Below, piece after piece: positions 3,976 through 61,499 of a stretch of 64,000 nt of DNA (positions are counted from its first letter, which is position 1; each line of letters opens with the position of its first letter). This DNA comes from Candidatus Brockarchaeota archaeon. Its GTDB lineage: Archaea > Thermoproteota > EX4484-205 > JAAOZP01. The notes beneath the pieces are model-generated. The model saw only the letters and a program-made list of their open reading frames with translations, was not told the origin of the DNA and searched no databases. The DNA is taken from assembly GCA_017601395.1 (NCBI GenBank), contig JAFNIQ010000001.1:16542-80541 (forward strand), given 5' to 3'. The translations under genes and the position numbers were made by a program.

Positions 3976-4767
3976 TCAACTCTGCTGGGAAAGATCTTTC
4001 TCAGCTAAGCTGTTCAATATTATCTTCCTCTCGGTCTCAAGCTCATCCAGCATTTTTCGAAGCCTCGCGCTCAGCCTATCATATGCTTCTCCAGATATTA
4101 TGTTATCCTTCTTCTCATCCTCCAAAACAATTAGAAAGGCCCTGATTCTCGTCATCTCCTCTTCTACAACGTTTAGACTGGTTGACAGGTCTGGTGCTGT
4201 TGGCTCGGATACTTGAGAAGGCTCAGCCGAAGAAATTTGAGCCTCCTCTTTTGTGCCTGATAATGGTTTAAAGAGATCTATAGGTGGGCCGGATGTTTCC
4301 ACAACCTCCTCAACAGGCGGCTGGGTTACTGCTGAAACAACCTTTCTCCTAGCGTTAGGCCTAAGCTTGCCTATTATGATTGCAGCCGCGGAGGCTGCCC
4401 AGACGACGAAATAACCTGCTCCGTAGCTTGGAACGTTAAAGCCCAATACAGGGTTGAAGACGGTTACTGTGGTTACGAGTACCATTCCAAGAATACCTAT
4501 GACACCGGAGCGCAATGGATAGAGCCCTAGGGCTCCGGCAGCAGTCAGGATTATGAATGATGCTAGAATTATGATCTCATAGATTAAAAGGTTCATGGGC
4601 TGTTGTATGCCGCTTGCAACGTTTTCAATAAATTGTACCACCATGCTGAATAAGGTTGCTTGCCCAGGCTGGCCGGAGGGAAGTAGAAAGGAGCCGAAAG
4701 GCAGTAGGAATGTTGCTAGAATCATCACCAAGCCCAGTGTTATCCCGGCAATCCTGTCCATATCCAT
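3976..4767 (-). CDS. Hypothetical membrane protein (N-terminal TM helices plus an acidic, coiled-coil C-terminal tail)
   Basis: ORF with 4-5 hydrophobic helices followed by a Pro/Glu/Ser-rich linker and a heptad-like segment (…RLSARLRKMLDELETERKIILNSL…). Confidence 0.5.
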   Translation of the reverse strand: MDMDRIAGITLGLVMILATFLLPFGSFLLPSGQPGQATLFSMVVQFIENVASGIQQPMNLLIYEIIILASFIILTAAGALGLYPLRSGVIGILGMVLVTTVTVFNPVLGFNVPSYGAGYFVVWAASAAAIIIGKLRPNARRKVVSAVTQPPVEEVVETSGPPIDLFKPLSGTKEEAQISSAEPSQVSEPTAPDLSTSLNVVEEEMTRIRAFLIVLEDEKKDNIISGEAYDRLSARLRKMLDELETERKIILNSLAEKDLSQQS

Positions 4768-4878
4768 CTTTACATTATTTTAATCTTGTTGAAAACATAT
4801 ATTAAGCTTCCTTTTCAGCATTCCCTGGGGTTAAAGCTGGAGAATGCTGATTCCCGCCTTACGTGCTGTTTTTTCCTG

Positions 4879-7479
4879 CTACGCTGGAGGAGGTGGAGGC
4901 GGCGGAGGGAGTGGTTGGGCGTAGGAAGGCTTCCTTCTTCTCAGCAGGAGTATGGCAATGATGACAACAATTAGAGCTAAGACAGCTGCGTATAGCCAAA
5001 TAGGTATGCCGACGGTGTATTTTGACACGGGTGTTCTGGCCTCATTGCCCACGTTATCAACCGCCTCAACATAGTACTGGACCTCTTTGAAGAACATTTG
5101 AGAAGGTATGGAGCCCCTGTAAACCCCTTCTTCAAGAACCATCGCGACCTTTGTCCAGGAGGAGCCTCCGTCTGTTGAGTAGTAAAGGCCGGCCTCCTTG
5201 ACTCCTGAAACCGCGTCTGAAACCTGGCATATTATTGTTGTTTGTTCTCCGAAGACAGGGTTTGAGGGCGCTGACAAGCCTGTGATCATGGGCGGAGAAT
5301 TGTCCACCTTAAGCGTGAAAGAGCCGCTCCAAGACGCCGCATTATCCATGTTGTCAACTGCCTCAACACTCCAATTGTGGCTTCCCTCGGAAAGGGTTAT
5401 TGTCTTAGAATACTCGCTGCCGCCAGCCATGGTTCCCTGCGGAATCCCGTCGACAGTGAGCCTAACCTCCTTAACCCCTGAGCCGGCATCCTCAACCCTG
5501 ACTGTGAACTTTACGGACGTTGAGCCCATGACTATGCTTCCGGTGGGTGAAACGCCACTTATGGCGGGAGGAGTGCTATCAAGGATTACGGATACTGTTT
5601 TCTCAGCCTCATTGTTATCGGCCCTGTCTATACTGTAGTATCCTATCGTATGGGGACCGTCTGAAAGGGCTGAGAGAGTAAAGCCTGATGTATAGATATT
5701 CCAAGAGCCGCCATCAATCCTATACTTAGTCTGTTTAACCCCGCTCGCATCGTCTGTCGCTGAAAGCTCGAACAACGTTGAGCCTGAAACAAAGATTGTT
5801 GCACCACTCGAATGCTTGGGATCATAGCTTATGGTTGTTACTGGAGGATTTGTATCAGGGATGACTGTGACTGTTGCTGTGCTGAGGGTTAGGCCTGTGG
5901 CTGAGGCTGTTAAGATCCATGTCCCTCCTTTCACATCGTAATAGTCAACCTTAACCATGCTTGAGCCCGCTAGAATTGTTATGCTCGTTATCCTGGTTGT
6001 GGTTCCGAATTTTCTGAACTCTCCCTCAGGCGATGTTGTTGAAAGGCTTACGATTATGGGTGTGGCGGTGGTGGTTTCATAGCCGTTAGCATCCCTGATA
6101 GAGATGTTGAGGTATGAGTATGTTACTCCAGCAGCCATGGTGAAGCTTGAAGGCGTTAAAGCAAGCTTCTCTGGAGGACCCGCCTTAACGTTGAAGGGGT
6201 TGCTCTCACCAGTCTTACCCGCGCCGCTAGTAGAAATCTTAACACTGTCCCCTATCCTGCTTATAGTCACCATGCCGGTCCACTTCCCGTTTACGAACGC
6301 ACCTGTTAACCTGGGCTCTATGGTTCCAGTGGTGTCTGAAAGGGTGTTTGTCCCAGTGTAGTCGGTCTTAACATTGCCATAGGCATCATAGGCAGTAATG
6401 GTTATTGAGAATGGCACTGCAACCTGCTTCGGCGAAGTTATGGTGTCGAATGCGAAACGGTCAAGCGGCCCCGGCTTAACGGTCAACTGTTTAGTATCGT
6501 CTCCGTAATTAGGCACGAAAATTATGAAGCCGCCGCTCCAAGTAAAATACATGTAATCGTCTGTCCAAACATGAATATCCCATGTCCCAGCCTTATCATC
6601 ATAATACCAGAACTCTTTAGAGTTTCCATCGGATTCAGATATTGTCAGCTCCGTTATCGCTGACCCGCCTTGGGTTAGAGAGAACTTCTTGTTGGCTGAG
6701 GTTGAGGTTGAGCTAAGCTTAACCTTTAAATCTCCACGGGTCACGGGCTCACCGTTATAGGTTTTCCGGGCGACGGTCAACTTAACCCATTTACCAGCTT
6801 CAAGCGTGGTGCTTGCAAGACTAAGCTCCAAGTGAGGAGGATAATACTTAACCTCAAGGTAGGGACGCAGGCTTGAATCATCGTGTTCCTTAGAATACAT
6901 ATACCAATAAATTTGAGTAGCGGCCGATTCAGTGCTGTCCTTAAGCCTCCAACCGAAGTTTGGCATCGCGCCAGCAATATCCTTCGACGCAAACTTTTCA
7001 ACTGAACTCTTCACATCAACACTAAGCCAAACGTTTGAAGTGGTGCCGACTGTTATGGATGATACTGAAACCATGGCTGGAGGCTGATTGTTCCACGTGA
7101 TTGTTCCCTCGTCCCAACCATCTGCATTAACAAGATGACACGCCAACGTTCTGCTTGAAGAAGGAGCTTTATACATGAATAGCTTGAGGCTGGCTGAAAC
7201 GATTACTGAGCCCGGAGGAATCGTGTTCAGATCAAACTTTATGAAGGAGCGCCAAACTTGAGAATCGCTGGAACCAGCGCTAACCCCTATATGTGTAAGA
7301 GCACCGTAATTGTTACTGCTAAAGGATCCTCCTGCAACTAACGCGTCCCCTACAGGGGAGAAGCGTCTGGTTAGCAGAGGAACCTCGTCACCTGCTACTC
7401 TCGTAACGATGCATGGTGTTTCCGAGCATACGATTATTATGATTATTAAAAGGCCTAATATTAGACTTGACTTATTCAA
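4879..7479 (-). CDS. Large cell-surface protein: signal peptide, DNRLRE-like N-terminal domain, multiple Ig-like domains including three tandem ~95-aa repeats, a C-terminal TM anchor and a poly-Pro tail
   Basis: N-terminal hydrophobic signal. Residues ~75-130 read WRSFIKFDLNTIPPGSVIVSASLKLFMY…TWNNQP (DNRLRE-domain-like). Three repeats carry D-x-SGVK and (S/T)xDGGSW motifs. The C-terminus reads IWLYAAVLALIVVIIAILLL-RRRK followed by PLPPPPPPPPA. Confidence 0.7.
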   Translation of the reverse strand: MNKSSLILGLLIIIIIVCSETPCIVTRVAGDEVPLLTRRFSPVGDALVAGGSFSSNNYGALTHIGVSAGSSDSQVWRSFIKFDLNTIPPGSVIVSASLKLFMYKAPSSSRTLACHLVNADGWDEGTITWNNQPPAMVSVSSITVGTTSNVWLSVDVKSSVEKFASKDIAGAMPNFGWRLKDSTESAATQIYWYMYSKEHDDSSLRPYLEVKYYPPHLELSLASTTLEAGKWVKLTVARKTYNGEPVTRGDLKVKLSSTSTSANKKFSLTQGGSAITELTISESDGNSKEFWYYDDKAGTWDIHVWTDDYMYFTWSGGFIIFVPNYGDDTKQLTVKPGPLDRFAFDTITSPKQVAVPFSITITAYDAYGNVKTDYTGTNTLSDTTGTIEPRLTGAFVNGKWTGMVTISRIGDSVKISTSGAGKTGESNPFNVKAGPPEKLALTPSSFTMAAGVTYSYLNISIRDANGYETTTATPIIVSLSTTSPEGEFRKFGTTTRITSITILAGSSMVKVDYYDVKGGTWILTASATGLTLSTATVTVIPDTNPPVTTISYDPKHSSGATIFVSGSTLFELSATDDASGVKQTKYRIDGGSWNIYTSGFTLSALSDGPHTIGYYSIDRADNNEAEKTVSVILDSTPPAISGVSPTGSIVMGSTSVKFTVRVEDAGSGVKEVRLTVDGIPQGTMAGGSEYSKTITLSEGSHNWSVEAVDNMDNAASWSGSFTLKVDNSPPMITGLSAPSNPVFGEQTTIICQVSDAVSGVKEAGLYYSTDGGSSWTKVAMVLEEGVYRGSIPSQMFFKEVQYYVEAVDNVGNEARTPVSKYTVGIPIWLYAAVLALIVVIIAILLLRRRKPSYAQPLPPPPPPPPA

Positions 7480-7638
7480 CTCTTTTCATCTTAAAGGCGG
7501 CTTCCTAGGATATAAACGTTTCCATGTTAAAGCGAATATCTTGGCTCATCCTTTTTCTTCCAAACATCTTTTTCACTACTTCTTAAGAAGTCGTATAATA
7601 ATTAAGCGACTGTGCTTTAAAAAGTTAAATAACTCCTT

Positions 7639-10638
7639 ATGGCTAGTCAATTTAAAATGATAGAAGAAAATAAATTTAGAAAACCTGTTTCAATATTCAA
7701 GGGCGCTCCATTCTGGTCGATAAACGACCTGTTAACTGAGGATAAAGTTAGGAGGGAGGTTCAGTCCCTGGGCAGTGCTGGATACGGAGGCGCGTTCTTT
7801 CACGCTAGAGAAGGCCTCGTCACACCGTTCCTAAGCGAGGAATGGTTTAATGCTTTCAGAGTTGCGGTTGAAGAAGCGGAGAAAAACGACATGTTAATCT
7901 GGATTTACGACGAGCTCTGGTGGCCCTCCGGCTTCGCAGGGGGGCTTGTTCCTTTTTTAGGCTCTAAACACAGGGCTAAGGCACTGGTCATGATGGTTGA
8001 CACTAGAAGCTACAAGGGGGAAGACATCATAGCGGGCTTCGAATGTGTTACAGATGGAAACGGGCTTCCGACAGAATTTAAGAGGGTTTTCGAAGAGAAG
8101 GCGGATTCGGAGAAGCTCTATCTGACATTTCTGAGGTACGTGGCGCCAGTCGGGGAGGCCTGGTACAATAGCTCATGCTACGTTGACCTTCTTGATTACG
8201 GGACAGTCAAGCAATTCTTAAACCTGGCCTACAAGCCTTATGTCGACCTTTTTCAGAAGGATATTGGAAGGACTATTCCAGGGGTTTTCACGGATGAGCC
8301 CAACTTCTCGTCAAGCAGGCCGCCCCCTAGGCAAGCCATGCCCCCAAGAGGGCCGAGGATACCGCCCTTCTCAGTGCCCTGGACAGAAGTGCTTCCGGAG
8401 AGGTTTAGGGAGGTCAACGGGTATGATTTAATAGATCATCTTCCGAAGCTTTTCTTCGACGTCGGCGACTATATGAAGGTGCGGTATGACTTCTGGAGAA
8501 CTGTTACTCTTCTTTTCTTAGAGTCTTTCTCGAAACAGGTATACGAGTGGTGCGATAGGAATAATCTGAAGTTTACTGGCCACTATTTAAGCGAGGACGA
8601 CCTTCTTGGTCAAACAATCCGCATAGGTGCAGCGATGCCTCATTATGAGTATCAGCATGTTCCTGGAATAGATCACTTGGGTATGCATGTCTGGAGGAGC
8701 CTGCTAACCGCTAAACAGGTTTCCTCGGCGGCGAACCAGCTTGGAAAAGAAAGGGTTCTATGCGAAGTCTACGGCTGCACCGGAAACTACCCGACTTTCG
8801 AGGACAGGAAGTGGATTGGCGACTGGCTTATAACGATGGGCGTGAACCTGATGTGCCACCACTTGGTTCCCTACTCGATGAGGGGTAGGAGGAAAAGGGA
8901 CTACGGGTTGAACTTCCACTGGGGTCAACCATGGTGGGATTACAACGAGTACATAGAGGATCATTTCTCAAGACTGTGCTACGTGCTTTCCATCGGGAGG
9001 AGGATCGTAAACGTGCTCGTTGTCCATTCGATTGGAAGCGCCTGGGCAAGCTATTCTCCGCTGAACGATTCCACTGTAAGGGTTCTGGACAGTCAGCTTA
9101 AAGGATTGCTAATGTCCCTTCTGAAACTACATGTTGACTTCGACCTTGGCGACGAGATGCTTATGGAGAAACACGCTAGTGTCGAAGGATCTAGGCTTAA
9201 GGTTGGGAATGCTTTCTACGACGTCGTGGTTGTACCGCCTTGTCTAACGCTTGCTGGAAGCACGGTTAGGCTTTTAAAGAAGTTTAAAGACTCAGGGGGA
9301 GAATTAGTGTTCGTTAAACCGCTTCCGAGCCTGGTTGATGGGAAGCCGAGCGTAGAACTGGCGGAGCTCATCAACAGGTGTACAGTTAAAGAGGATTATA
9401 ACACAGGGTCTTTGAGCGACGTTTTGCCGGACCACTGTAAAATTTTGAAAATAGATGGCGATGAAGAGGGTAATCTCCTATACCATTTAAGGAGAGACGA
9501 TTCTGGCGACATGGTTCTGTTCGTTTTTAACGTGAGCAGGGATAAGGCTGTGAACGCTAGAATCGGGCTTCGCGGTTCTTTCAGCATTAAACTGTTAGAT
9601 ACTCTAAGCGGTTTAACATCGGAGTTTGAAGGCTATGTGGAAAACGGTTGGACGTATCTGGAGCATGTTTTCCAACCTGTTTCCTCGCTCCTGCTCGCTT
9701 TCTCGCCTGGAAAGCCGAAGAAAATGTCCGTCAAGCCTAGGAAAACCTTAGAAATCCCACTGTCTTCAGACTGGAGTGTTAAACGGATTGATCCTAACGT
9801 GCTGGTTTTAGATTACTGTAGGTACAGGACGAGTGGTGATTGGAGTGAAAAAATGCCTCTTTGCAAGGCTAGAAAACAGATAGTTGCAGAAGGTGTTGGA
9901 ACAAGGTTTACTTTAAAATTCGATTTCGAGTTGAAAACTACTCCTCTAGGTAAGAGTATTAAGCTGGCCATGGAGACACCCCACTTGTTCAGGATTAGGA
10001 TAAACGGGAAAGACGTTCTCTGGAAGGATGAAGGAAACTGGGTTGACGACTGCCTCAGGGTGATGAGTGTAACCGAATATTTGAGAGAAGGTATGAACGA
10101 GATTGAGCTTGAAGGGCTCGTCGGAATCGAGCCTGAGATGGAGAACATTTTCCTCATCGGCGAGTTCGGGGTTGAGCTTCCCCCTGGGAAAAATCCAGTG
10201 GTTGTCGAGGAGCTTGCTCGGGTTGAGACTAGGGATCTGGCTAAACAGGGCTACCCGTTTTACGTCGGCTCCTTCGAACTGTGCAACGAGTTTCGATATG
10301 GTGAAGACCCTGGCAGTAAGACGGTCGTCCTGAGGCTGGATGGCTTAAAGGCTGCGCTCGCCGTAGTCTATATTAACGGTCAGGAGGCTGGCAAGGTCTT
10401 CATGCGTCCTTTCACTCTTGACGTGACAAGGCTTGTTAGAAAGGGGTTGAACGAGCTTAAAGTGAAGATCGTTGGGACGCTGAGAAATGCTTTCGGACCG
10501 CTGCACTACGTGGGAGGAGACCCGCTATACATAGGCCCGGAGACTTTCGAGGATGAGAGACACTGGACTGATGAGTACGTTTTAAAACCGTTTGGGCTGG
10601 AGAAAGCGGAAATCATTATTTACGAGAAAAGCCTTTAG
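7639..10638 (+). CDS. Large putative glycoside hydrolase (999 aa). The N-terminal catalytic-type domain resembles GH106-like alpha-L-rhamnosidase-family proteins. The C-terminal region resembles a GH2-type sugar-binding jelly roll.
   Basis: N-terminal KGAPFWSINDLLTEDKVRREVQSLGSAGYGGAFFHAREGL…EEWF block. C-terminal …LRLDGLKAALAVVYINGQEAGKV… beta-sandwich-like region. No signal peptide. The family assignment is from memory only. Confidence 0.5.
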   Translation: MASQFKMIEENKFRKPVSIFKGAPFWSINDLLTEDKVRREVQSLGSAGYGGAFFHAREGLVTPFLSEEWFNAFRVAVEEAEKNDMLIWIYDELWWPSGFAGGLVPFLGSKHRAKALVMMVDTRSYKGEDIIAGFECVTDGNGLPTEFKRVFEEKADSEKLYLTFLRYVAPVGEAWYNSSCYVDLLDYGTVKQFLNLAYKPYVDLFQKDIGRTIPGVFTDEPNFSSSRPPPRQAMPPRGPRIPPFSVPWTEVLPERFREVNGYDLIDHLPKLFFDVGDYMKVRYDFWRTVTLLFLESFSKQVYEWCDRNNLKFTGHYLSEDDLLGQTIRIGAAMPHYEYQHVPGIDHLGMHVWRSLLTAKQVSSAANQLGKERVLCEVYGCTGNYPTFEDRKWIGDWLITMGVNLMCHHLVPYSMRGRRKRDYGLNFHWGQPWWDYNEYIEDHFSRLCYVLSIGRRIVNVLVVHSIGSAWASYSPLNDSTVRVLDSQLKGLLMSLLKLHVDFDLGDEMLMEKHASVEGSRLKVGNAFYDVVVVPPCLTLAGSTVRLLKKFKDSGGELVFVKPLPSLVDGKPSVELAELINRCTVKEDYNTGSLSDVLPDHCKILKIDGDEEGNLLYHLRRDDSGDMVLFVFNVSRDKAVNARIGLRGSFSIKLLDTLSGLTSEFEGYVENGWTYLEHVFQPVSSLLLAFSPGKPKKMSVKPRKTLEIPLSSDWSVKRIDPNVLVLDYCRYRTSGDWSEKMPLCKARKQIVAEGVGTRFTLKFDFELKTTPLGKSIKLAMETPHLFRIRINGKDVLWKDEGNWVDDCLRVMSVTEYLREGMNEIELEGLVGIEPEMENIFLIGEFGVELPPGKNPVVVEELARVETRDLAKQGYPFYVGSFELCNEFRYGEDPGSKTVVLRLDGLKAALAVVYINGQEAGKVFMRPFTLDVTRLVRKGLNELKVKIVGTLRNAFGPLHYVGGDPLYIGPETFEDERHWTDEYVLKPFGLEKAEIIIYEKSL

Positions 10639-10743
10639 CAAAACATCTTTCACACCGTTTTCATATTTCTGCTAACTTTTTTTAACGCGATTCAAATGGA
10701 AGGTTTAAAAGCCTCTTTAAAAGCCTCCGTTCGGTAAAAACGG

Positions 10744-11538
10744 TTGCTGAAAATAATTGTTCTCATAAAACAGGTTCCGGATATCGAGAGGGTAAGGTTC
10801 GACGTGGAAACAGGGAGAATAGATAGGAGTTCAGCGCCGGCAGAGATAAACCCGTTCGACCTGAACGCTCTCGAGGCGGCTGTACAGATTAAGGAGAAGG
10901 TGGGAGGTTTCATCACTGCCTTAAGCATGGGTCCGATGCAGGCCCTAAGCTCTCTGAGGGACGCTATGGCTAGGGGCGCTGACGACGCGATCCTTCTTGA
11001 GGACAGGAGGTTCGCCGGAGCCGATACTTTGGCTACTTCCAACACTCTCGCTGCTGCAATTAGAAAGATCGGGCCCTACGATATTATTCTCTGCGGAGAG
11101 AAGACTGTCGACGGCGACACCGGGCAGGTTGGCGCAGAGGTTGCCCAGCTTCTTGAAATCCCTCATGTCTACTATGTTTCGAGGATTGTTAACGTTTCTG
11201 GAAACTCTATTACCGTCGTCTCCGAGACGGAGGATGCTTCCTACGTTTTGGAAACGGGTTTCCCGGTTCTAGTCAGCGTCACGAGGGATGTCAACAAGCC
11301 TAGGCTGCCAACATTGAAGAGCAAGATGAAGGCGATGAAAAGCGAGGTTAAAATATGGCATGCTGAGGACTTGAGCGGTTTTCTAGACCTGGATAAGGCT
11401 GGTTACGCCGGCTCTCCTACATGGGTTCACAAGGTTGTTGTTCAAAGGGAGAAAACCAGACAGGTTAGGATATACAGGCAGGTTGAAGACGGGATTCAAG
11501 AGTTGATGCGCCTCTTAGAGTCTAAAGGGTTGATTTAA
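10744..11538 (+). CDS. etfB: Electron transfer flavoprotein beta subunit
   Basis: The N-terminus MLKIIVLIKQVPD… is canonical for EtfB. Length 264 aa. It is immediately followed by etfA. Confidence 0.85.
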   Translation: MLKIIVLIKQVPDIERVRFDVETGRIDRSSAPAEINPFDLNALEAAVQIKEKVGGFITALSMGPMQALSSLRDAMARGADDAILLEDRRFAGADTLATSNTLAAAIRKIGPYDIILCGEKTVDGDTGQVGAEVAQLLEIPHVYYVSRIVNVSGNSITVVSETEDASYVLETGFPVLVSVTRDVNKPRLPTLKSKMKAMKSEVKIWHAEDLSGFLDLDKAGYAGSPTWVHKVVVQREKTRQVRIYRQVEDGIQELMRLLESKGLI

Positions 11539-11540
11539 AA

Positions 11541-12545
11541 ATGGAGGGTAAAGGCTCAGGTGGAAAAGTACTCGTTGTCGCGGAGCTCAGGGGGGAGGCA
11601 ATACACCCTGTTACTTTCGAGCTTCTCGGAAAAGGCAGGGAGATAGTGGAGCATACTGGTGGAGAACTCTGGAGTGTGGTTTTCGGCAGCAACGTGGATA
11701 AGGCTAAGGCTTCAGAGCTAATATATTACGGTGCAGACCGGGTTTTCCTCTTCAACGACCCTGTTTTTTCCAGTTTAAACACGATGGTTTACGCACACAA
11801 TCTCACTAGGCTTTGTAGGGAGGAGAAGCCGGACATAATCCTGATAGGGGCAACATGCTTCGGAAGGTCTCTGGGCCCAAGGGTTGCGGCAGCGAGAGAA
11901 ACAGGTTTAACAGCAGACTGCATAGATTTAAGGATTGACGAGAACGGTGAGCTGATACAGATCAGGCCAGCATTCGTGGGAAACATCTTAGCGTACATTA
12001 AGACTAAGACTAAGCCCGTGATGTCTACTGTGCGGTACAAGGTTATGAGGGCTAGGGAGAAGGATAAGAGTAGAAGCGGCCTGATTATCGAAAAAACGGC
12101 TGAGAAATCTTTCCAAGACAGGATCAGGCTTGTTGGGGAGGCAATACCAAAGAAGCTTAACATAGCGGATGCTGAAATCATAGTTGCAGGCGGCAGGGGA
12201 CTGGGGTCGGCGGAAGGATTCAGGCTACTGGGGGAGCTTGCCAGCCTGCTTGGAGGAGTTGTGGGCTCAAGCAGGCCGCCTGTGGACGACGGGTGGATAA
12301 GGAAGGAGCATCAAGTCGGCTATAGCGGGAGCATAGTTAAGCCTAGGCTGTATATTGCTTGCGGAATCTCCGGCTCGCCGCAACACCTGTTCGGCATGAA
12401 GGATGCTGAAACCATCATAGCCATTAACAGCGACCCTTCGGCACCCATATTCAGGGTTGCTGACTACGGTATTGTGGGAGACCTTTATCAGATCATACCA
12501 CTTATGGTAAAAGAGATAAAAGCCAGGAGGAGCGGCTTAGGTTGA
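11541..12545 (+). CDS. etfA: Electron transfer flavoprotein alpha subunit (no N-terminal ferredoxin domain)
   Basis: C-terminal FAD-binding block …GGRGLGSAEGF…VVGSSRPPVDDGW…QVGYSGSIVKP…YIACGISGSPQH…. Length 334 aa. A 2-nt gap separates it from etfB. Confidence 0.85.
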   Translation: MEGKGSGGKVLVVAELRGEAIHPVTFELLGKGREIVEHTGGELWSVVFGSNVDKAKASELIYYGADRVFLFNDPVFSSLNTMVYAHNLTRLCREEKPDIILIGATCFGRSLGPRVAAARETGLTADCIDLRIDENGELIQIRPAFVGNILAYIKTKTKPVMSTVRYKVMRAREKDKSRSGLIIEKTAEKSFQDRIRLVGEAIPKKLNIADAEIIVAGGRGLGSAEGFRLLGELASLLGGVVGSSRPPVDDGWIRKEHQVGYSGSIVKPRLYIACGISGSPQHLFGMKDAETIIAINSDPSAPIFRVADYGIVGDLYQIIPLMVKEIKARRSGLG

Positions 12546-13906
12546 TGGAGGGTTTAGCGGAGCAACTTGAGGAAATCGTAGGCAGGGAGGCGGTGGTAAG
12601 CGGTAAAGACAAGATTGAGAGCTACTTGTCCGATGAAACGTGCTTTCCGGTGAGACCGTCTGCCGTATCAGACTGCATACTGGTTAAGCCTGCTAACAGC
12701 ACCGAGGTTTCAAGGATCCTTAGGCTGGCTAACGAAAAAAGGATTCCAGTATACCCTAGGGGAGGAGGGACAGGCCTTGTGGGAGGGGCTGTGCCGACTA
12801 GAAGCGGGATAATCGTTTCCCTGGAGAGGATGAATCGGATTGAAGTGGACGGAGAAAACCTGATGGCTGTCGCAGAAGCCGGGGCAACGCTGGGGGAGCT
12901 CCTGAAGGCTGCTGAGGAAGCAGGCCTCTCTTTCCCGCCGCATCCCGGGGACGAGGGTGCTCAGATAGGCGGCCTCGTAGCCTGCAACGCTGGCGGGGCT
13001 AGGGCTGTTAAGCATGGTGTTATGAGGAGCTTCGTAAAGGGCTTGGAGGTTGTACTGCCCACTGGGGAAATCGTAACTTTCGGCGGTAGGCTTCTGAAAG
13101 ACAACATGGGCTACAGCTTGATGCACTTGATCATAGGAAGCGAGGGCACACTTGGAATTATAACTAGGGTTGTTTTAAGGCTTAACCCTAAAGCGCCATA
13201 CTCCTTCACCCTGCTGCTTCCTTTCAACTCGAGGCATGACGCGCTTAATACTGTCCCGAGAATACTGCGCTCTGGGGTGACTCCCCTTGCTCTAGAGTAT
13301 GTCGAGAAGGAGTTGATGGAGCTGTCTGCTGAACACTTGGGCGAGAAATGGGTTTTCGAGGGAAAAGTCTTTCTCATAGCAATACTGGCGGGGGAGGAGA
13401 ACGTTGTCTACTCTGAGGCTGAAAAGCTTTCCCAGCTATGCGTTGAGAACAACGGGCTTGAGCCTTCAGTTGCAGAGAGAAGGGACGAGCAGGAATCCAT
13501 TTTGAGAATAAGAAGCAATATTTACACTGCTCTTAAACGCGACTCCATGGATATTCTTGACACGACGGTTCCACCATCTGCGATTGGAAAGCTGGCGGAC
13601 GCTATCGACACTATTGCCGAGAAATATGGCGCGCACATTCCTGTTTACGGTCATGCTGCAGATGGAAATGTTCACTCTCACATAATGAAGAAGGATGCTG
13701 AGAAATACGAGTTGATTAAGAGAGAAATATATGAGACTACGATAGGCCTTGGAGGAACCATCAGCGGTGAACACGGTGTTGGGAAAATCCGGGTGAAGGA
13801 GCTTTACCGGTTCACGCATCCGAAGAAAATCGAGCTTATGAAGGGGGTTAAAAGGCTTTTCGACCCGAATAATATTCTAAATCCTTCCACGGTGCTAGAG
13901 GTTTAG
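12545..13906 (+). CDS. FAD-binding oxidase (GlcD / D-lactate dehydrogenase-like, FAD_binding_4 plus FAD-oxidase C-terminal domain)
   Basis: RIPVYPRGGGTGLVGGAVP FAD-binding motif. C-terminal HAADGNVH…GGTISGEHGVG block. The ATG at 12545 overlaps the etfA TGA (TGATG). The ORF track begins 3 nt earlier at a TTG. Confidence 0.8.
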   Translation: MEGLAEQLEEIVGREAVVSGKDKIESYLSDETCFPVRPSAVSDCILVKPANSTEVSRILRLANEKRIPVYPRGGGTGLVGGAVPTRSGIIVSLERMNRIEVDGENLMAVAEAGATLGELLKAAEEAGLSFPPHPGDEGAQIGGLVACNAGGARAVKHGVMRSFVKGLEVVLPTGEIVTFGGRLLKDNMGYSLMHLIIGSEGTLGIITRVVLRLNPKAPYSFTLLLPFNSRHDALNTVPRILRSGVTPLALEYVEKELMELSAEHLGEKWVFEGKVFLIAILAGEENVVYSEAEKLSQLCVENNGLEPSVAERRDEQESILRIRSNIYTALKRDSMDILDTTVPPSAIGKLADAIDTIAEKYGAHIPVYGHAADGNVHSHIMKKDAEKYELIKREIYETTIGLGGTISGEHGVGKIRVKELYRFTHPKKIELMKGVKRLFDPNNILNPSTVLEV

Positions 13907-14051
13907 GAATTAACGGGTGAAAAACAGTAAACATAAGAGTTAAACCTTCCGTGAAGGATGTGGTATCCCTATAAGATGCAAGTCTTTATATACTGCCGGT
14001 TTGTCAGAGAAGGATTTGAAATGATAAAAACTGTTTGGTGCGTCACATTCT

Positions 14052-14309
14052 ATGTTTCCGAAACTTGAAGAGTGTAAACATGTTGCTTCAAAATCGCCGT
14101 CAGTGGAGTTTCTTGTTGAAAACGTGGAAAGGTTTTATGAGGAGTTAAAAGGTAAGGGTGTAAAGTTTATTAGGGAGTTGCATGAGGAGCCGTGGGGAGG
14201 GAAGCAAGCGACTTTTACAGACCCTGATGGAAACATTTTAGAGATAGTGCAGATCGATTGGGAGAAATACTTTAACGTATCTGCCCAAGGAGCGAAAAAG
14301 AGGGCATAA
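14052..14309 (+). CDS. VOC-family (glyoxalase/bleomycin-resistance-like) domain protein, single C-terminal module only; probably truncated or frameshifted
   Basis: The 85-aa ORF ends …WGGKQATFTDPDGNILEIVQ, typical of VOC C-terminal strands. A 16-codon ORF in another frame (14021-14068, MIKTVWCVTFYVSET*) resembles a VOC N-terminal strand. Confidence 0.45.
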   Translation: MFPKLEECKHVASKSPSVEFLVENVERFYEELKGKGVKFIRELHEEPWGGKQATFTDPDGNILEIVQIDWEKYFNVSAQGAKKRA

Positions 14310-15853: not shown

Positions 15854-16009
15854 ATGAAATTCGTACCTCTCCAAAAAGGAAGTACACCAGAGCCTGGTAC
15901 AAGGCCGCTCACATGTTGTGGTAGTAATTTCCATTTTGGAACGTATTGCACGCCAGTAAAGGGGCCGACCCAGATTATCAGCGATATTAAGGCGCTTAGG
16001 GAAGACTAA
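15854..16009 (+). CDS. Unannotated 51-aa small ORF, candidate RiPP precursor peptide (MKFVPLQKGSTPEPGTRPLTCCGSNFHFGTYCTPVKGPTQIISDIKALRED)
   Basis: ATG at 15854. The TAA at 16007-16009 overlaps the ATG (16009-16011) of the radical SAM/SPASM gene as TAATG. Three Cys sit in a Gly/Thr/Ser-rich stretch. A TATA-like box lies upstream. The ORF is below the length cutoff of the ORF track. Confidence 0.4.
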   Translation: MKFVPLQKGSTPEPGTRPLTCCGSNFHFGTYCTPVKGPTQIISDIKALRED

Positions 16010-17340
16010 TGAAAGTGAAAGCTTCTAGGTTTAATTTTTTTATACCTTTCTCAGATGGTTATTTAATATACAACACGTTTAATGGTGCACTGGCTTTTAT
16101 TGATGCGGAACTTAAGAACTTAGAGGCCAGCGACTTTCAAAAATTGCCTCCCAATCTTTTAAAAAGTCTCTTAGATCAGGGATTCTTAATCGAGGAGTTC
16201 GTCGATGAATTGCTAATGTACGAGTATTATTTCAACCTAGCAAGATACTTAACAAGTTCTGTAGGCTTTCTTCTATTAACTACGTATGATTGCAACTTTA
16301 ATTGTGTTTATTGTTATGAGAGACCTGTTATTTCCAAAGTTTATATGGATCTTGATGTCGCAAGAAGAACCGCTACTCATATTACCAAATTTACTGATGG
16401 GAAAATGGCTAAACATGTTGAGATAACTTTGTATGGTGGTGAACCCTTGCTGAATCTCAACATAGCTCAGGTAGTGTTAGATGAAGTTTTGAAATGGTGT
16501 CAGAAAAATGGTGTATCGTTGGATATCAATCTCGTAACAAATGGCTCACTTATAACTCCTGAAGTTGTTAATAGTCTTAAAGCATACAATCTTAACTCCG
16601 TTCAAGTGACGATGGATGGTCCAAAGGAAATTCACGATAAAAGAAGACCCTTTCGAAACGGCATGGGTTCTTTTGATGTAATAATGTCAAATGTTCTTAA
16701 TTGTATAGATAGTCTGCCCATAACTATAAGGGTCAATGTTGACAAGGGAAACGTCTCTTATTTCCCTGCTTTTTTGGATTTACTAGACGATTTGGGTCTA
16801 AAAAATAAAGCGGGATTATGGATTGCAATGCTTCATGGATTAGATGACTATTGTAAAACTATGAAATTTAATGATAAAGAAGCAAACGAAATACGTTACA
16901 ATATGTGGAGGCTTGCTCTCAAAAGAGGCTTCAAATTCGGATGGTATCCCTCAAGATTCCATTTATGCGATGCGATGAGGGACAACGCTCAGATAATCGA
17001 TCCTAAGGGCAATATATATAAATGTTGGAGTTTTGTAGGACTTGAAGAGTGTACTGTGGGTAAAATAGGAGAAGGAACTTACAAGCCTTATTTTTATGAA
17101 TTGTTAACTAGGAATCCTATAAGAGACGCAAAATGCAGCAGATGTAATGTACTGCCATACTGTAATGGGGGGTGCCTATATGAAGCTTACTGCCATACTG
17201 GGAATAGATCTAATTTTGTATGCGGTGTTCTTCAGGGAAAGGAAGCGTTAGAGAGCATGCTTACTCTACATGTTATTAGTATGTACAAGGAAAAACTTGT
17301 AAAGAGTGAAGTAAGCGTAGGCAATGAAATCTATGATTAA
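16009..17340 (+). CDS. Radical SAM enzyme with C-terminal SPASM domain (peptide-modifying maturase family; anSME-like)
   Basis: CNFNCVYCYERP (CxxxCxxC) near residue 95. C-terminal …YKCWSF…ECTVGK…CSRCNVLPYCNGGCLYEAY auxiliary-cluster (SPASM) cysteines. Confidence 0.85.
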   Translation: MKVKASRFNFFIPFSDGYLIYNTFNGALAFIDAELKNLEASDFQKLPPNLLKSLLDQGFLIEEFVDELLMYEYYFNLARYLTSSVGFLLLTTYDCNFNCVYCYERPVISKVYMDLDVARRTATHITKFTDGKMAKHVEITLYGGEPLLNLNIAQVVLDEVLKWCQKNGVSLDINLVTNGSLITPEVVNSLKAYNLNSVQVTMDGPKEIHDKRRPFRNGMGSFDVIMSNVLNCIDSLPITIRVNVDKGNVSYFPAFLDLLDDLGLKNKAGLWIAMLHGLDDYCKTMKFNDKEANEIRYNMWRLALKRGFKFGWYPSRFHLCDAMRDNAQIIDPKGNIYKCWSFVGLEECTVGKIGEGTYKPYFYELLTRNPIRDAKCSRCNVLPYCNGGCLYEAYCHTGNRSNFVCGVLQGKEALESMLTLHVISMYKEKLVKSEVSVGNEIYD

Positions 17341-28779: not shown

Positions 28780-30369
28780 TTGGGAAGCCAACGGGAAAAA
28801 GGGAAATTGTCCAGAGAAGCCTCTTCAAAAAGGCAGGATGGCGGAAAGAAAATAGTGTTAACCGCGTCTGCAGTGGAAATGAGCGATTTCAACCTGAACC
28901 CGTTCATAGCCTTTTCAGCAGGGTTCCCCCTGCCGTTTTCTAAGAGGCTCCTCAGGGAAAGGCTTTATCCTCCGCCACCGTTAAACGATGATGGAACCGT
29001 TAAGCACGCCCCCTACGGCTTGAGAAAAATAGAGTCTCTCCTTATAGACGAGTTTGGCGAGGAGAATGTTGCAACCGTTTACCCAACCATGCTTGAAATG
29101 TTCGTTGGGAAGGAAACAAGGGTTGTAGGGATTTCTTCCATGGATCCGTTGGGGATAGGCTTTGTAAGCAGGACCTACACGAGCCTTATCGGTATAGACG
29201 GTAAGCCCGTCACGAGAGTGGAGTTTGAAACACTTCTTTCCAACCCTGTTTTCAAGAAGTATAGGCCTAAAGTAGTTTTGGGCGGAAGCGGTGCTTGGCA
29301 GGTTGTCAAGACAGGGGTTCAGCAGAAGCTAGGGATAGACAGCGTAGTGATGGGCGAGGCTGAGGAGGATGTTGTAAACCTCTTCAGAAAAGCCTTGAAC
29401 GGTGAAGAGCTTCCGAAGCAGCTGGTGTGTAGCAGGCCTGAGCTTGAAAAAGTTCCGTGCATTAAGAAAGCATCCCTGTTCGGTGTTGTTGAAGTCACGC
29501 GGGGATGCGGAAGAGGATGTCAATTCTGCTCTCCGACGCTTAGACAAAGATACTCCTTTCCTCTGGAACACGTATTGAAAGAAGTTGACATAAACGCTAG
29601 AAGCGGAACCAGGATGATAACTCTTCAGACGGACGATATATTTCTGTATAAGGCGGATTCTAGTTTCACGCCGAACGGGGATGCGGTGTTTGAACTGGTC
29701 GACTCAGTAGCTAAAGTTAAAGGAGTAAAGTATATTCAGGTGGCGCACGCGGCTCTTACGCCCGTAGTCTATGATCATGGGCTTGTTGAAAAAATAGCGC
29801 CCACGCTCGTTGAGAAGTCCAGATGGACTTACTTGAACAATCAGAGGTATGCGACTTTCGAAATAGGTATTGAAACCGGGAGTGTCAGACTGATAGAGAA
29901 ATACATGAGGGGGAAGGTGCTGCCATACACGCCTGAACAGTGGCCGGATATTGTGGTTCAAGCTCTTGGGATACTTAACGACAACCAGATATATCCTTTA
30001 GCAACACTCGTAATGGGTCTTCCCACTGAAAACGAGGAGGACGTTACTGCAACCCTTGAGCTGCTCGACAGGTTGAAGAATAATAGGGTCTTCTTCGTCC
30101 CCCTGCTCTTCACATCTGAGGAGGATTGCATTTTAAACAGGGAGAACCATGCCGACTTGCATAGTTTATCAGAGCTTCACTGGGATGTTTTCTCAACGTG
30201 TTGGAGGCACAACGTGAAAACATGGAGGGGAAACGGCTTTCAACATTTGATCAGAATCGGAGGATTATTCGCCTACTTGGTTTACTACAGGCGGCTGCAC
30301 GGCCCCAAGGTTCTAAAACATATTCTAAAGGTTTCAGGTTGGGGTGAAGAACTGCAAGAGAGGTTCTAA
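28780..30369 (+). CDS. B12-binding-domain radical SAM protein
   Basis: N-terminal Rossmann-like B12-binding region (KKIVLTASAV…) and VTRGCGRGCQFCSP (CxxxCxxC). The exact start is uncertain. Confidence 0.75.
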   Translation: MGSQREKGKLSREASSKRQDGGKKIVLTASAVEMSDFNLNPFIAFSAGFPLPFSKRLLRERLYPPPPLNDDGTVKHAPYGLRKIESLLIDEFGEENVATVYPTMLEMFVGKETRVVGISSMDPLGIGFVSRTYTSLIGIDGKPVTRVEFETLLSNPVFKKYRPKVVLGGSGAWQVVKTGVQQKLGIDSVVMGEAEEDVVNLFRKALNGEELPKQLVCSRPELEKVPCIKKASLFGVVEVTRGCGRGCQFCSPTLRQRYSFPLEHVLKEVDINARSGTRMITLQTDDIFLYKADSSFTPNGDAVFELVDSVAKVKGVKYIQVAHAALTPVVYDHGLVEKIAPTLVEKSRWTYLNNQRYATFEIGIETGSVRLIEKYMRGKVLPYTPEQWPDIVVQALGILNDNQIYPLATLVMGLPTENEEDVTATLELLDRLKNNRVFFVPLLFTSEEDCILNRENHADLHSLSELHWDVFSTCWRHNVKTWRGNGFQHLIRIGGLFAYLVYYRRLHGPKVLKHILKVSGWGEELQERF

Positions 30370-30719
30370 GGGTCTGCAATCATATCTCTAAGCGCTTTAT
30401 CAACTATTCTCGCTATCTCGACTAGCCCAACCAGTATGCAGGGCACTCCCCTGAGCCTAGCCAAGTCAGCCGTCATCTGGTCCTGCGTGATGATTACGAG
30501 GCTGTTTCTAGCCGCGTGTTCAACTATTATCTCGTCCTCCGCTCCCTTTAAACCCACGTCGTCAACCGTCTGAGCGTCCCACCCAAGTGTTTTAAGAAAC
30601 GGCTTTAAACCGGAGTACATTTCGTCCAATAGTATCTTGACGTTTTTCACGAAGAGTATCTTGTTCAGGCTTTTCTTTAATCTTTTCTGTACTAAAGTTG
30701 AAAACAATCTTAAACGCAA
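30366..30719 (-). CDS. Mut7-C/DUF82-like (PIN-like) small protein. The true start is probably internal, at V/M near KILLDEM.
   Basis: KILLDEMYSGLKPFLKTLGWD…DEIIVEHAARNSLVIITQDQ…GVPCIL matches the Mut7-C RNase-domain pattern (LxDxMLGxLxRxLRxLGYD…DxxIL…A…R…LTRD). Confidence 0.5.
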   Translation of the reverse strand: MRLRLFSTLVQKRLKKSLNKILFVKNVKILLDEMYSGLKPFLKTLGWDAQTVDDVGLKGAEDEIIVEHAARNSLVIITQDQMTADLARLRGVPCILVGLVEIARIVDKALRDMIADP

Positions 30720-30745
30720 AAGTCTTATAAAAGAGAGGCTGCATT

Positions 30746-31879
30746 ATGATTCGGCGTCGGATGTGGGTTCTCAGAAGCGATGCGATAACCGTGTGGAACA
30801 ATAAGGATGTTCAGAAAAGGCTCTCATGGTATAGGGCTGTTATGAAAAACCTTAAACCAGCCAAATTCCTAATAGCTAAAAGCATCCCGGCACAGGTCGG
30901 GGTTAAGGATCTAGAGAACATGAAGGAGGAGGAGCTCTGGAGGCTTCATGAAAAGCTTAGTTTAGAGTTCAGGAGAATCCATGAGTCTGTGAAGACAGGT
31001 AAGGCTGGTGAGACCACCCCTACAGAAGTAAGCTTCCTAGATGTAAAGATAATGCTCTCCGAAAGACTCGTTGAACACTGCGAATTTTGCGAGAGAAGAT
31101 GCAGAGTGAACCGGAGGAGGGGGGAGCTGGGGTTCTGCAGAGTAGGGTATGTAAGCAGGGTTTCAACATGGTTCCACCACTTCGGGGAGGAGGGACCGTT
31201 AATAGGCGAGGGAGGCTCCGGAACAATATTCTTCGCAGGCTGCAACTTCGGGCCTTGCGTCTACTGTCAGAACTGGGATATCTCTTCAGACCCTGGGAAC
31301 GGGGGCGAGGTTAATCCGAGAACACTGGCGCTAATCAGCAGGAGGCTTAGCGCTGAGAATGCTGCAAACATAAACTACGTGGGGGGAGACCCGACGCCGA
31401 ATCTCCATACAATACTCTCATCCCTTAAACATTTGGATGTAAACATTCCGCAGCTCTGGAACAGCAACATGTATTGCAGCACTGAGGCTATGAGGCTTCT
31501 CGCTGAAGTCATAGACATATGGCTACCGGACTTCAAGTATGGCAGCGACGATTGCGCCAGAAGGCTTTCAAAGGTGGAAAAATATTTCGAAGTGGTGGCG
31601 AGAAACCACAGGATTGCCTACGAGAACGGCGATATGATAATAAGACACCTGGTTCTTCCTAACCATCTAGAGTGTTGCACCAAGCCTGTTTTAAAATGGA
31701 TATCTGAAAACACTCCTAACGTTCTCGTGAACATAATGGGCCAGTATCATCCGGATTACTTGGTGGCGAGAAACCCTGGAGCGTATCCAGATATCGCTAG
31801 AAGGCCTAGTGCGAGAGAGATGCAGGAAGCCTATGATTACGCGAGAAGGCTTAACATAGTTTTCGAACCCGTGTCCTAG
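30746..31879 (+). CDS. Radical SAM protein of the PflX-like (COG1313, PFL-activating-enzyme-related) family
   Basis: N-terminal CEFCERRCRVNRRRGELGFC Cys cluster. The GSGTIFFAGCNFGPCVYCQNWDIS block shows a Cx4Cx2C spacing. Length 377 aa. Confidence 0.7.
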   Translation: MIRRRMWVLRSDAITVWNNKDVQKRLSWYRAVMKNLKPAKFLIAKSIPAQVGVKDLENMKEEELWRLHEKLSLEFRRIHESVKTGKAGETTPTEVSFLDVKIMLSERLVEHCEFCERRCRVNRRRGELGFCRVGYVSRVSTWFHHFGEEGPLIGEGGSGTIFFAGCNFGPCVYCQNWDISSDPGNGGEVNPRTLALISRRLSAENAANINYVGGDPTPNLHTILSSLKHLDVNIPQLWNSNMYCSTEAMRLLAEVIDIWLPDFKYGSDDCARRLSKVEKYFEVVARNHRIAYENGDMIIRHLVLPNHLECCTKPVLKWISENTPNVLVNIMGQYHPDYLVARNPGAYPDIARRPSAREMQEAYDYARRLNIVFEPVS

Positions 31880-32802
31880 CTAACCCGGTTATCCCAATAT
31901 GGTTTTTTCAACATAATTGCCTCCATAAACCTCCTTTTTAAATCATCATCGCCGCCGCCTGAACGCATCAACCCCACTATGTCTACCAAATTATCGTTTC
32001 TCAACAAGCAGGGCTTCAGCCTCCCGTCGCAAGTAACCCTTAGCTTGTAGCAGTGGGAGCAGAAGTCAGGATTCCCAGTTGGCGAGACTATTTCGACTAG
32101 AACTGTCCTTCCGTTTCTGGGGAGCATGTAGATGGAGCGTTGTCCAGTGTAGTTGACAGTTTTCCCGGCTGATTTTGAGGAGATGGTTTTTTCAACATCC
32201 TTAAGGCTGACGTGAAACTCTTGGAAAACCTTCTCGCCACCCGGAATCGGCTGGAGCTCTATGAGCTGGAGAACAGCCCCAATGGAGCCAGCGTAATCCA
32301 GCATCTCTTCAACATCCTCCTCGTTAACCCCTTTCAGAACAACCATGTTTATCTTAACCGGGTTTAGGCCAGTCTCTAATGCGGCATTTATCCCTTTGAA
32401 AACCCTTGAAACATCCCCACCCCCAGTTATCCGGCTGTACTTTGAAGAATCGAGACTAGGAAGGTTAACGTTAACTCTTGCTAGTCCCGCATCCTTAAGG
32501 TCCCCAGCGTATTCCTCAAGGAGGACACCGTTTGTAACGAGCGAAACCTCGCTGACGAGCGGGGAGATCGCTTTCACCATGTCGACAACGTCTTCTCTAA
32601 CCAATGGTTCCCCACCCGTTATCTTAACAGTTTCAACGCCTGTGCTGCTAGCGACCTCGACGATTTTTCTAACCTCGTTTAGAGTCATGCTTCCCCTAGG
32701 AGGAGGGTTCCATTCCCTGTGGCAGAAGAAGCAATTAAGGTTGCAGTTATCCGTAACAGATATCCTGAGGTTTTTCAAGGGTCTGCCGGCCTGTTGAAAC
32801 AT
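31876..32802 (-). CDS. moaA: GTP 3',8-cyclase MoaA (molybdenum cofactor biosynthesis radical SAM)
   Basis: LRISVTDNCNLNCFFC (CxxxCxxC) near residue 20 and C-terminal auxiliary-cluster Cys (CSHCYKLRVTCDGRLKPC). Length 308 aa. Confidence 0.85.
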   Translation of the reverse strand: MFQQAGRPLKNLRISVTDNCNLNCFFCHREWNPPPRGSMTLNEVRKIVEVASSTGVETVKITGGEPLVREDVVDMVKAISPLVSEVSLVTNGVLLEEYAGDLKDAGLARVNVNLPSLDSSKYSRITGGGDVSRVFKGINAALETGLNPVKINMVVLKGVNEEDVEEMLDYAGSIGAVLQLIELQPIPGGEKVFQEFHVSLKDVEKTISSKSAGKTVNYTGQRSIYMLPRNGRTVLVEIVSPTGNPDFCSHCYKLRVTCDGRLKPCLLRNDNLVDIVGLMRSGGGDDDLKRRFMEAIMLKKPYWDNRVS

Positions 32803-60875: not shown

Positions 60876-61499
60876 TTACCATCTGGTGAATTCAACCGTC
60901 TTATCTCTCTTAGGCGGGATGCCGGATGTGTGCACAAGATACCGGATCTGAGAGGAAGCCTCAATCATACAGGTGACGTGGTAAGCCTCTTCCAAGAGCT
61001 TAGCCGCGGCGAATGTTCCGTGACCCCTCACCACAACCCCCTTATAGTGTTTAAGCGCCTCCGAAACCTTTTCCTCAAGCTCCTTGGAGCCGCTCACCTC
61101 TTTGACAACAAGCACAGGTATTTTTCTAAGCACGTAGTCTCCCTCGGCATCCATCGGAATTATCTCGTCAAAGATCAGTGAGCAGACTATCGAGTAGGGT
61201 GGGTGAGCATGTACAACGGCCAGTGCTGAAGTATTAAGATATACGGCCCTGTGAACCATGGTTTCAGAAGAGCTTAATAGTATTGAACTATCCTCCTCGA
61301 AAAGGTCTACTTCAACAACGTCCTCCGGCCCTATCTCGTCGGCAGCCGCGCCCCTCCTTTTAATATACATCTTATTGCCAACCCTAACGCTTATGTTTCC
61401 GCTATGGCTAACCATGTAGCCTTTATCGAAAAGCTTCTTGCCATACTTGCTTATCTCCTTCCAAACCTCGCTTACACCACTAGGGTTCAATCCTCTCAA
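60876..61499 (-). CDS. Class II aldolase/adducin-family protein (L-fuculose-/L-ribulose-5-phosphate aldolase/epimerase-like)
   Basis: The MVSHSGNISVRV N-terminal motif and a His-rich metal site (…VVHAHPPYS…). Length 207 aa. Confidence 0.75.
   Translation of the reverse strand: MRGLNPSGVSEVWKEISKYGKKLFDKGYMVSHSGNISVRVGNKMYIKRRGAAADEIGPEDVVEVDLFEEDSSILLSSSETMVHRAVYLNTSALAVVHAHPPYSIVCSLIFDEIIPMDAEGDYVLRKIPVLVVKEVSGSKELEEKVSEALKHYKGVVVRGHGTFAAAKLLEEAYHVTCMIEASSQIRYLVHTSGIPPKRDKTVEFTRW

Follow-up and report, generated by a model that had tools for sequence, protein, structure and literature searches.

Electron-confurcating complexes of a lactate dehydrogenase and an electron transfer flavoprotein (Etf), referred to as Ldh-EtfAB, are a known kind of enzyme but have been characterized only in Acetobacterium woodii, where an iron-sulfur domain of EtfA is indispensable. 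In a 2018 survey, electron-bifurcating Ldh was reported from Bacteria alone, GlcD homologues of archaea are usually considered alongside HdrD, and the description of the Brockarchaeota mentions neither lactate nor Etf; literature searches of incomplete coverage returned no paper on an archaeal Ldh-EtfAB. Here, we describe a cassette of etfB, etfA and a FAD-dependent dehydrogenase gene in a 64-kb stretch of a Candidatus Brockarchaeota metagenome-assembled genome (MAG; contig JAFNIQ010000001.1; the whole stretch is referred to as the window). Based on sequence comparisons, we suggest, with a confidence somewhat above even, that this cassette encodes a soluble Ldh-EtfAB-type complex that couples lactate/pyruvate, NAD(H) and ferredoxin or flavodoxin in an anaerobic archaeon.

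Among the described systems, LctBCD of A. woodii (PDB 7QH2) shares with the window the gene order etfB-etfA-ldh, the motifs for the second FAD (b-FAD) and NAD, the SPT motif, the residues Arg205 and Asp189, the metal triad, the catalytic His and an Arg; it differs by the ferredoxin domain of its EtfA, by separate dehydrogenase and EtfA clades, and from a window whose host is archaeal. Bcd-EtfAB of C. difficile and A. fermentans (PDB 5OL2 and 4KPU) also comprises a two-FAD Etf of group 2 without a ferredoxin domain, to which the window subunits score much as they do to LctBC, and free ferredoxin or flavodoxin docks at its EtfB flavin; however, its partner is an acyl-CoA dehydrogenase and not a hydroxyacid dehydrogenase of the VAO/GlcD fold. 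In M. elsdenii (D-LDH and Etf) and F. nucleatum (Ldh-ETF-Bcd), a FAD-dependent D-lactate dehydrogenase passes electrons to an Etf without a ferredoxin domain, but these electrons go on to Bcd and crotonyl-CoA, and no Bcd is linked to the window cassette. Finally, GlcDEF/Dld-II and the archaeal GlcD-HdrD have the same dehydrogenase fold and metal site, but the window cassette has neither GlcE/GlcF nor HdrD as a neighbor.

The three genes form a translationally coupled cassette (Table 1). The TAA of etfB (11536-11538) is followed by AA and then by the ATG of etfA at 11541, leaving a gap of 2 nt, and within ggTTGATGg the TGA of etfA (12543-12545) overlaps the ATG of the dehydrogenase gene (12545-12547), with an AGGAGG 14 nt upstream. 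An earlier note on this DNA had pointed to this order, gap and overlap as those of an LctB-LctC-LctD arrangement, and all three hold. For etfB, no start is possible between an in-frame TAA (10735-10737) and the TTG, and this start agrees with the N termini of homologues. In Pfam, EtfB matches ETF (3.3e-44), EtfA matches ETF and ETF_alpha, and the dehydrogenase matches FAD_binding_4 and FAD-oxidase_C, with E-values for the three proteins spanning 1e-33 to 1e-48. We compared 86 loci, 80 from a scan of GTDB species representatives (a sample, so at least 80) and six from exact-sequence look-ups. The same three-gene cassette recurs in divergent archaeal and bacterial lineages amid unrelated flanking genes and, therefore, its linkage is not due to chance.

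A neighbor-joining tree of 90 dehydrogenase sequences (Kimura distances, 200 bootstraps) assigns the window protein to a group of 23 sequences with a bootstrap of 0.95, 16 of which make up an inner core with a bootstrap of 0.90. This group, hereafter the window clade, lies outside the A. woodii-type LctD group, and GlcF neighbors are found in the clade of E. coli GlcD but not here; the deep branching order in the neighbor-joining trees is weak (0.4-0.65). The EtfA tree (200 bootstraps) resolves a corresponding window clade of 12 sequences (0.92) next to an A. woodii-type (0.97) and a Synergistales-type clade (1.00), and the congruence of the dehydrogenase and EtfA clades indicates that dehydrogenase and Etf traveled together as a module. 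The clade contains Brockarchaeota, Bathyarchaeia, Thermofilaceae/Thermoprotei, Hadarchaeota and Thermoplasmata together with a few deep-branching anaerobic bacteria; the bacteria in the dehydrogenase and EtfA clades belong to Bipolaricaulota, Dehalococcoidia, Synergistota and Halanaerobiaceae. Sequence clusters at ≥57% identity number more than 120, and those with a name are all archaeal. Judged by these trees, the dehydrogenase is not an LctD orthologue but belongs to an Etf-linked clade of its own. Thus, the resemblance to LctBCD put forward in the earlier note holds for the gene order and for LctB and LctD as best solved matches but does not extend to orthology, and the phylogeny proposed there places the oxidase outside the clades of GlcF-linked GlcD, D2HGDH and LDHD but also outside that of A. 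woodii LctD.

Both sequence scores and cofactor motifs indicate that EtfAB is of the two-FAD, NAD(H)-binding, bifurcating type (group 2) and not of the AMP-binding type. First, the best PDB match of EtfB is A. woodii LctB (7QH2_B, 192 bits), followed by the Etfs CarD and those of C. difficile, A. fermentans and T. maritima at 158-171 bits, versus 65-74 bits for canonical AMP-type ETF structures. For EtfA, the scores are 250-269 bits with CarE, T. maritima EtfA, LctC and the Etfs of C. difficile and A. fermentans, versus 168 bits with human ETFA and no more than that with canonical ETFs in general. Second, mutagenesis of the A. woodii enzyme (Kayastha 2022) assigned LctB 122-DGDTAQVGP-130 to the second FAD, 87-RXFXG-91 to NAD(H) and 223-SPT-225, which anchors EtfB's arm, to coupling. 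The window EtfB has DGDTGQVGA, which matches the first motif at seven of nine positions, RRFAG at the NAD(H) site and GSPTWV; across the window clade, DGDT[GA]QVG[PA] is conserved throughout and SPT in most members, and some relatives differ at the first Arg of RXFXG. Third, Arg205 of LctC, which contacts N5 of b-FAD within the motif RPXFGG, has its equivalent in the window EtfA (IRPAFVGN versus IRPAFGGN in LctC, with one Gly replaced by Val), and the equivalent of LctC Asp189 (TAD) is also conserved. Fourth, the Gly of DGDT (Gly123 in A. fermentans numbering), which leaves room for the flavin and separates bifurcating from canonical ETFs, is retained. The canonical group 1 signature is accordingly absent, with no bulky residue at this position and the DGDT stretch in place, and the AMP-type EtfB that the earlier note would have taken as evidence against its proposal was not found.

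The type of Etf bears on a different reading of the cassette, namely that of a simple shuttle in which electrons would leave through the EtfA flavin to an acyl-CoA dehydrogenase or to ETF:quinone oxidoreductase (ETF-QO)/FixCX without coupling to NAD or ferredoxin. Such a route is known from F. nucleatum Ldh-ETF-Bcd and from M. elsdenii, in which D-LDH delivers electrons to Bcd through an Etf devoid of a ferredoxin domain, and the window EtfA indeed lacks the domain that A. woodii needs. However, the canonical F. nucleatum ETF is of the AMP type with a Phe at the diagnostic position, whereas the window EtfB has the Gly and complete FAD and NAD motifs that are conserved in its clade; a shuttle would leave the conserved NAD(H) site unexplained. 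Moreover, no FixCX, Bcd, ferredoxin or HdrD gene recurs as a fourth conserved gene across 13 loci of the window clade, no ETF-QO gene accompanies the cassette in these loci, and some Brockarchaeota genotypes lack most respiratory complexes. We therefore regard a shuttle as unlikely. For the same reasons, and because Bcd-EtfAB is also devoid of the domain, we do not follow the earlier suggestion that a missing ferredoxin domain makes this complex a conventional donor to quinone.

The absence of the ferredoxin domain from the window EtfA, also recorded in the earlier note, is evident from its length, from the alignment to LctC and from its lack of N-terminal Cys residues. The protein begins at the equivalent of LctC residue ~66-78, with its residue 13 opposite LctC 78 in the alignment; it has neither an N-terminal extension nor a Cys motif, and its first 12 residues include no Cys. 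In A. woodii, this domain carries a single [4Fe-4S] cluster bound by C(x)17CxxCxxC and is essential for confurcation. Yet free ferredoxin or flavodoxin is accepted by Bcd-EtfAB, which naturally lacks the domain, and CarCDE remains bifurcating when its own is removed. The domain is absent from all 12 EtfAs of the window clade and, among the loci compared, from all Etf-linked relatives with 46-100% dehydrogenase identity, which comprise archaea as well as Bipolaricaulota, Dehalococcoidales, Acetomicrobium and Halanaerobiaceae; a further clade without it contains Synergistales, Spirochaetales, Treponemataceae and Halanaerobiaceae. A 4-Cys domain of 65-75 aa is found in 19 A. woodii-type loci (36-40% dehydrogenase identity) and an 8-9-Cys, two-cluster domain in three loci, two from Bathyarchaeia and one from Clostridia. 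No EtfB indel, used as a proxy for a protrusion that shields the flavin, tracks the EtfA ferredoxin domain: EtfBs of all clades are colinear at 259-285 aa, and lengths of 259-270 aa in the window clade compare with 261-270 aa in the other Etf-linked clades. The pattern across loci and the uniform EtfB length indicate that the absence of the domain is a lineage trait of the whole module type and not a sign of a conventional Etf. In the two Bathyarchaeia loci (L023, ~1100-2293; L031, ~4785-5972), EtfA has an 8-Cys N-terminal domain for two [4Fe-4S] clusters like that of CarE, so that the etfB-etfA-dehydrogenase module exists in archaea in at least two architectures.

The dehydrogenase is a FAD-dependent D-2-hydroxyacid dehydrogenase, probably of the D-lactate type. 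Its best PDB match is A. woodii LctD (7QH2_C; 2.4e-84, 287 bits, 36.6% identity), ahead of glycolate oxidase 9QGZ (211 bits), 3PM9 (205 bits), human D2HGDH (191 bits) and mitochondrial LDHD (175 bits). The metal ligands H370/H377/E409, the catalytic H410 and R323 correspond to H377/H384/E422, H423 and R328 of LctD, and LctD L80, D346 and E37 are also conserved. The metal and catalytic residues recur throughout the D-2-hydroxyacid dehydrogenase family and, therefore, do not fix the substrate. Among NCBIfam models, GlcD is the best family, at scores below its cut-offs (TIGR00387, 323.9 versus 567.9 bits; NF008408, 200 versus 897 bits). No separate GlcE or GlcF homologue is present in the window or the clade loci; matches to GlcE fall inside the dehydrogenase gene, and GlcF was searched by tblastn.

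Evidence for lactate comes mainly from relatives. In the three bacterial clade members with enough flanking sequence, larA adjoins the cassette, in the orders larA-etfB-etfA-ldh (L008), etfB-etfA-ldh-ldh-larA (L009, Dehalococcoidales) and ldh-etfB-etfA-lctP-larA (L016). The window itself encodes a LarA-type protein, and the earlier identification as LarA-like is borne out by its two Pfam domains and by its best solved matches, the lactate racemases 2YJG (352 bits) and 5HUQ (312 bits) versus 190 bits for malate racemase. Its score against the NCBIfam model Ni_dep_LarA is 454.3 bits, 6 bits under the cut-off of 460, versus at most 329 bits for malate racemase models, and alignment to 5HUQ/6C1W shows that it keeps the equivalents of His108/His174, of the Lys184 tether and of the Ni-binding His200. 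It is 41-42% identical to the LarA homologues that adjoin lct-type cassettes in L016, L027, L035 and L079, and it could plausibly supply D-lactate from L-lactate. By association with the larA and lctP neighbors in relatives, lactate is the best-supported candidate substrate.

The same Etf coupling could also serve glycolate, D-2-hydroxyglutarate, D-malate or many different D-2-hydroxy acids, as would fit the family-wide His/His/Glu metal site and catalytic His, the sub-threshold match to GlcD, a clade apart from LctD with three differing pocket residues (see below), and archaeal loci in which the cassette lies amid unrelated housekeeping genes with no adjacent permease, racemase or regulator. 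We consider these substrates improbable in view of the LarA and lactate permease genes next to the cassette in bacterial clade members, the grouping of the LarA on this contig with true lactate racemases, the distinct clade of GlcF-linked GlcD, and LctD as by far the best solved match. In L009, the two tandem dehydrogenase paralogues between etfBA and larA (4463-7350) are 44% and 54% identical to the window protein.

The mechanism that we infer for an Ldh-EtfAB-type complex would run as follows. At its FAD and metal site, the dehydrogenase would oxidize D-lactate or a closely related D-2-hydroxy acid. The electrons would then move singly to the second FAD in EtfB, with the FAD carried by EtfA's mobile domain as a relay. 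The second FAD would also accept a single low-potential electron, donated by free ferredoxin or flavodoxin, and pass a hydride to NAD+, giving overall: lactate + reduced ferredoxin + 2 NAD+ <-> pyruvate + oxidized ferredoxin + 2 NADH. In the absence of a [4Fe-4S] adaptor on EtfA, the carrier would, like that of Bcd-EtfAB, have to bind directly near the EtfB flavin. Lactate/pyruvate is at −190 mV and NAD(H) at −320 mV, a gap that the low-potential one-electron carrier would close. The reaction is near equilibrium (about 6 kJ/mol) and either direction is, therefore, possible. In the forward direction, the complex might consume reduced ferredoxin derived from pyruvate:ferredoxin oxidoreductase (PFOR) during lactate oxidation; in reverse, it might serve a fermenter as an NADH-driven, ferredoxin-reducing pyruvate reductase. 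The description of the Brockarchaeota presents some genotypes as fermenters, and the phylum has PFOR and aldehyde:ferredoxin oxidoreductase (AOR), which as sources of reduced ferredoxin support the ferredoxin-coupled reading. In L002, the closest relative outside the species (labeled as a Nitrososphaeria MAG; 72% dehydrogenase identity), the cassette is followed immediately downstream, on the opposite strand, by a flavodoxin-family gene (7515-7988, −); its product is a candidate low-potential partner, and the gene is not at this position in the window.

Several findings weigh against a confurcating lactate dehydrogenase. The RXGV motif of the small subunit near b-FAD, which is present in most group 2 sequences, reads DRSSA in the window clade, with Arg kept and Gly-Val replaced; in T. 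maritima Etf, variants at the Arg of this motif retain partial bifurcation activity. Deletion of the ferredoxin domain in A. woodii abolishes confurcation, apparently due to an EtfB protrusion that shields the flavin. The window dehydrogenase is ~37% identical to LctD and equally distant from non-Etf homologues, a split with a bootstrap of 1.00 places it on the side of GlcD, D2HGDH, LDHD and many non-Etf homologues, and three of its pocket residues are unlike those of LctD (Y386 to H, L332 to Y and E344 to I). A search of the 64 kb for the ferredoxin motif CxxCxxCxxxC[PEGA] gave no match, no lactate permease was found in the window, and none of larB, larC and larE was seen among its annotated open reading frames (ORFs).

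Moreover, a second FAD does not suffice for bifurcation. The Etf of C. propionicum is a close relative of bifurcating Etfs, is said to carry a blocking insertion and is non-bifurcating; thus, the group 2 motifs are necessary but not sufficient. By analogy with the acryloyl-CoA reductase-Etf of that organism, the cassette could encode a two-FAD but non-bifurcating NADH-dependent reductase of pyruvate, or of another 2-oxoacid, that dissipates the energy and does without ferredoxin. The AcrA and AcrB models are the top or second-best NCBIfam family for the window Etf subunits, and neither a ferredoxin adaptor nor a ferredoxin gene is encoded in the window; however, the AcrA/AcrB scores are far under the cut-offs (187 versus 475 bits and 271 versus 600 bits), and the EtfBs of the window clade have no insertion relative to bifurcating EtfBs. 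We consider such an enzyme quite unlikely and retain the coupled Ldh-EtfAB-type complex as our working model.

Table 1. Features of the cassette and of the rest of the window (positions in the window).
Feature	Position	Strand	Description
GH106-like gene	7639-10638		directly upstream of etfB
Short ORF	10696-10737	+	13 codons, MEGLKASLKASVR
Putative archaeal promoter	10704-10727	+	tandem TATA-like TTTAAAAGCCTC (x2); read from sequence
etfB	10744-11538	+	TTG start, 264 aa; small (beta) Etf subunit
etfA	11541-12545	+	334 aa; large (alpha) Etf subunit, without N-terminal [4Fe-4S] ferredoxin domain
FAD dehydrogenase, GlcD/LctD family	12545-13906	+	453 aa, or 454 aa with TTG at 12542 as start
Apparently damaged VOC/glyoxalase-family gene	14021-14309	+	directly downstream of the cassette; probable pseudogene
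Three radical-SAM proteins	16009-17340, 28780-31879	+	first one (16009-17340) 443 aa, followed by ABC transporter genes
MogA-like, MoaC, MoaE, MoaA	24491-25857, 31876-32802	-	Mo/W cofactor
URO-D family protein	47364-48461	-	weak, sub-threshold likeness to MtaA/CmuA methylcobamide methyltransferases
LarA-type nickel-pincer lactate racemase	59572-60834	+	Pfam Lar_N + LarA_C; 45.7 kb downstream of the cassette
Class II aldolase	60876-61499	-	flanks larA
Aldehyde:ferredoxin oxidoreductase	62812->64000	-	flanks larA; runs off the window

The host contig is archaeal, which the earlier note did not recognize: the dehydrogenase, EtfA and LarA are identical in sequence to proteins from a single contig of a Candidatus Brockarchaeota MAG. 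NCBI labels the dehydrogenase only as "FAD-binding oxidoreductase", EtfA as [quoted passage not shown] and LarA as "nickel-dependent lactate racemase". The spacer upstream of etfB is 105 nt long and contains the tandem TTTAAAAGCCTC, the second copy of which is centered ~25 nt upstream of the etfB start. This spacing suggests a leaderless or short-leader transcript; a TATA-like tttttaaata lies at a similar distance in L002. Part of the same spacer can also be read as the short ORF in Table 1, which ends 6 nt before the TTG start and whose first codons resemble the start of the dehydrogenase gene (MEGL...); this segment is probably promoter sequence and the likeness due to chance. Scans for sigma-70 promoters and intrinsic terminators, which use bacterial models not applicable to an archaeon, gave results at chance level, and scans of the window for Rfam families and tRNAs had no hits. 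Downstream of the cassette, an 85-aa ORF (14052-14309) covers no more of the Glyoxalase domain than its C-terminal part (profile positions 76-121 of 121), and a 15-codon ORF from 14021 in another frame (MIKTVWCVTFYVSET, then a stop) resembles a VOC N terminus; together, they are probably a frameshifted or deleted pseudogene.

The window also encodes GH106-like, CBM96, GH2, GH4, BNR, NagA and YdjC proteins as well as several ABC and MFS transporters, a content that fits a polysaccharide-fermenting archaeon. One might speculate that a deoxy-sugar is converted via lactaldehyde and L-lactate to D-lactate by the GH106-like protein, the aldolase, AOR and LarA; support for GH106 is weak (a match of 39.9 bits), the aldolase reaches only a generic "aldolase" model, and neither an isomerase nor a kinase for rhamnose or fucose was found for this route. 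The Mo/W cofactor genes are on the same contig as the AOR gene. The MtaA/CmuA-like protein fits the methylotrophy proposed for Brockarchaeota, and the first radical-SAM gene with the ABC transporter genes may be a cluster for peptide maturation or export.

More broadly, we tentatively propose, at slightly less than even confidence, that several archaeal lineages hold adaptor-less Ldh-EtfAB complexes that confurcate or bifurcate between lactate and pyruvate through direct docking of ferredoxin or flavodoxin. The cassette represents a large and coherent lineage that is naturally without the ferredoxin domain and is found in many uncultivated archaea. If the proposal is correct, these complexes would serve as a natural test case for the dependence of the A. 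woodii enzyme on its iron-sulfur domain, and as a simpler, all-flavin and probably thermostable model for the access of ferredoxin to the bifurcating flavin. If the complex does not confurcate, it would be the second two-FAD non-bifurcating Etf after that of C. propionicum. Confurcation, in turn, would extend lactate-linked electron bifurcation to Archaea and give the fermentative metabolism of these organisms an additional lactate/pyruvate node that balances ferredoxin.

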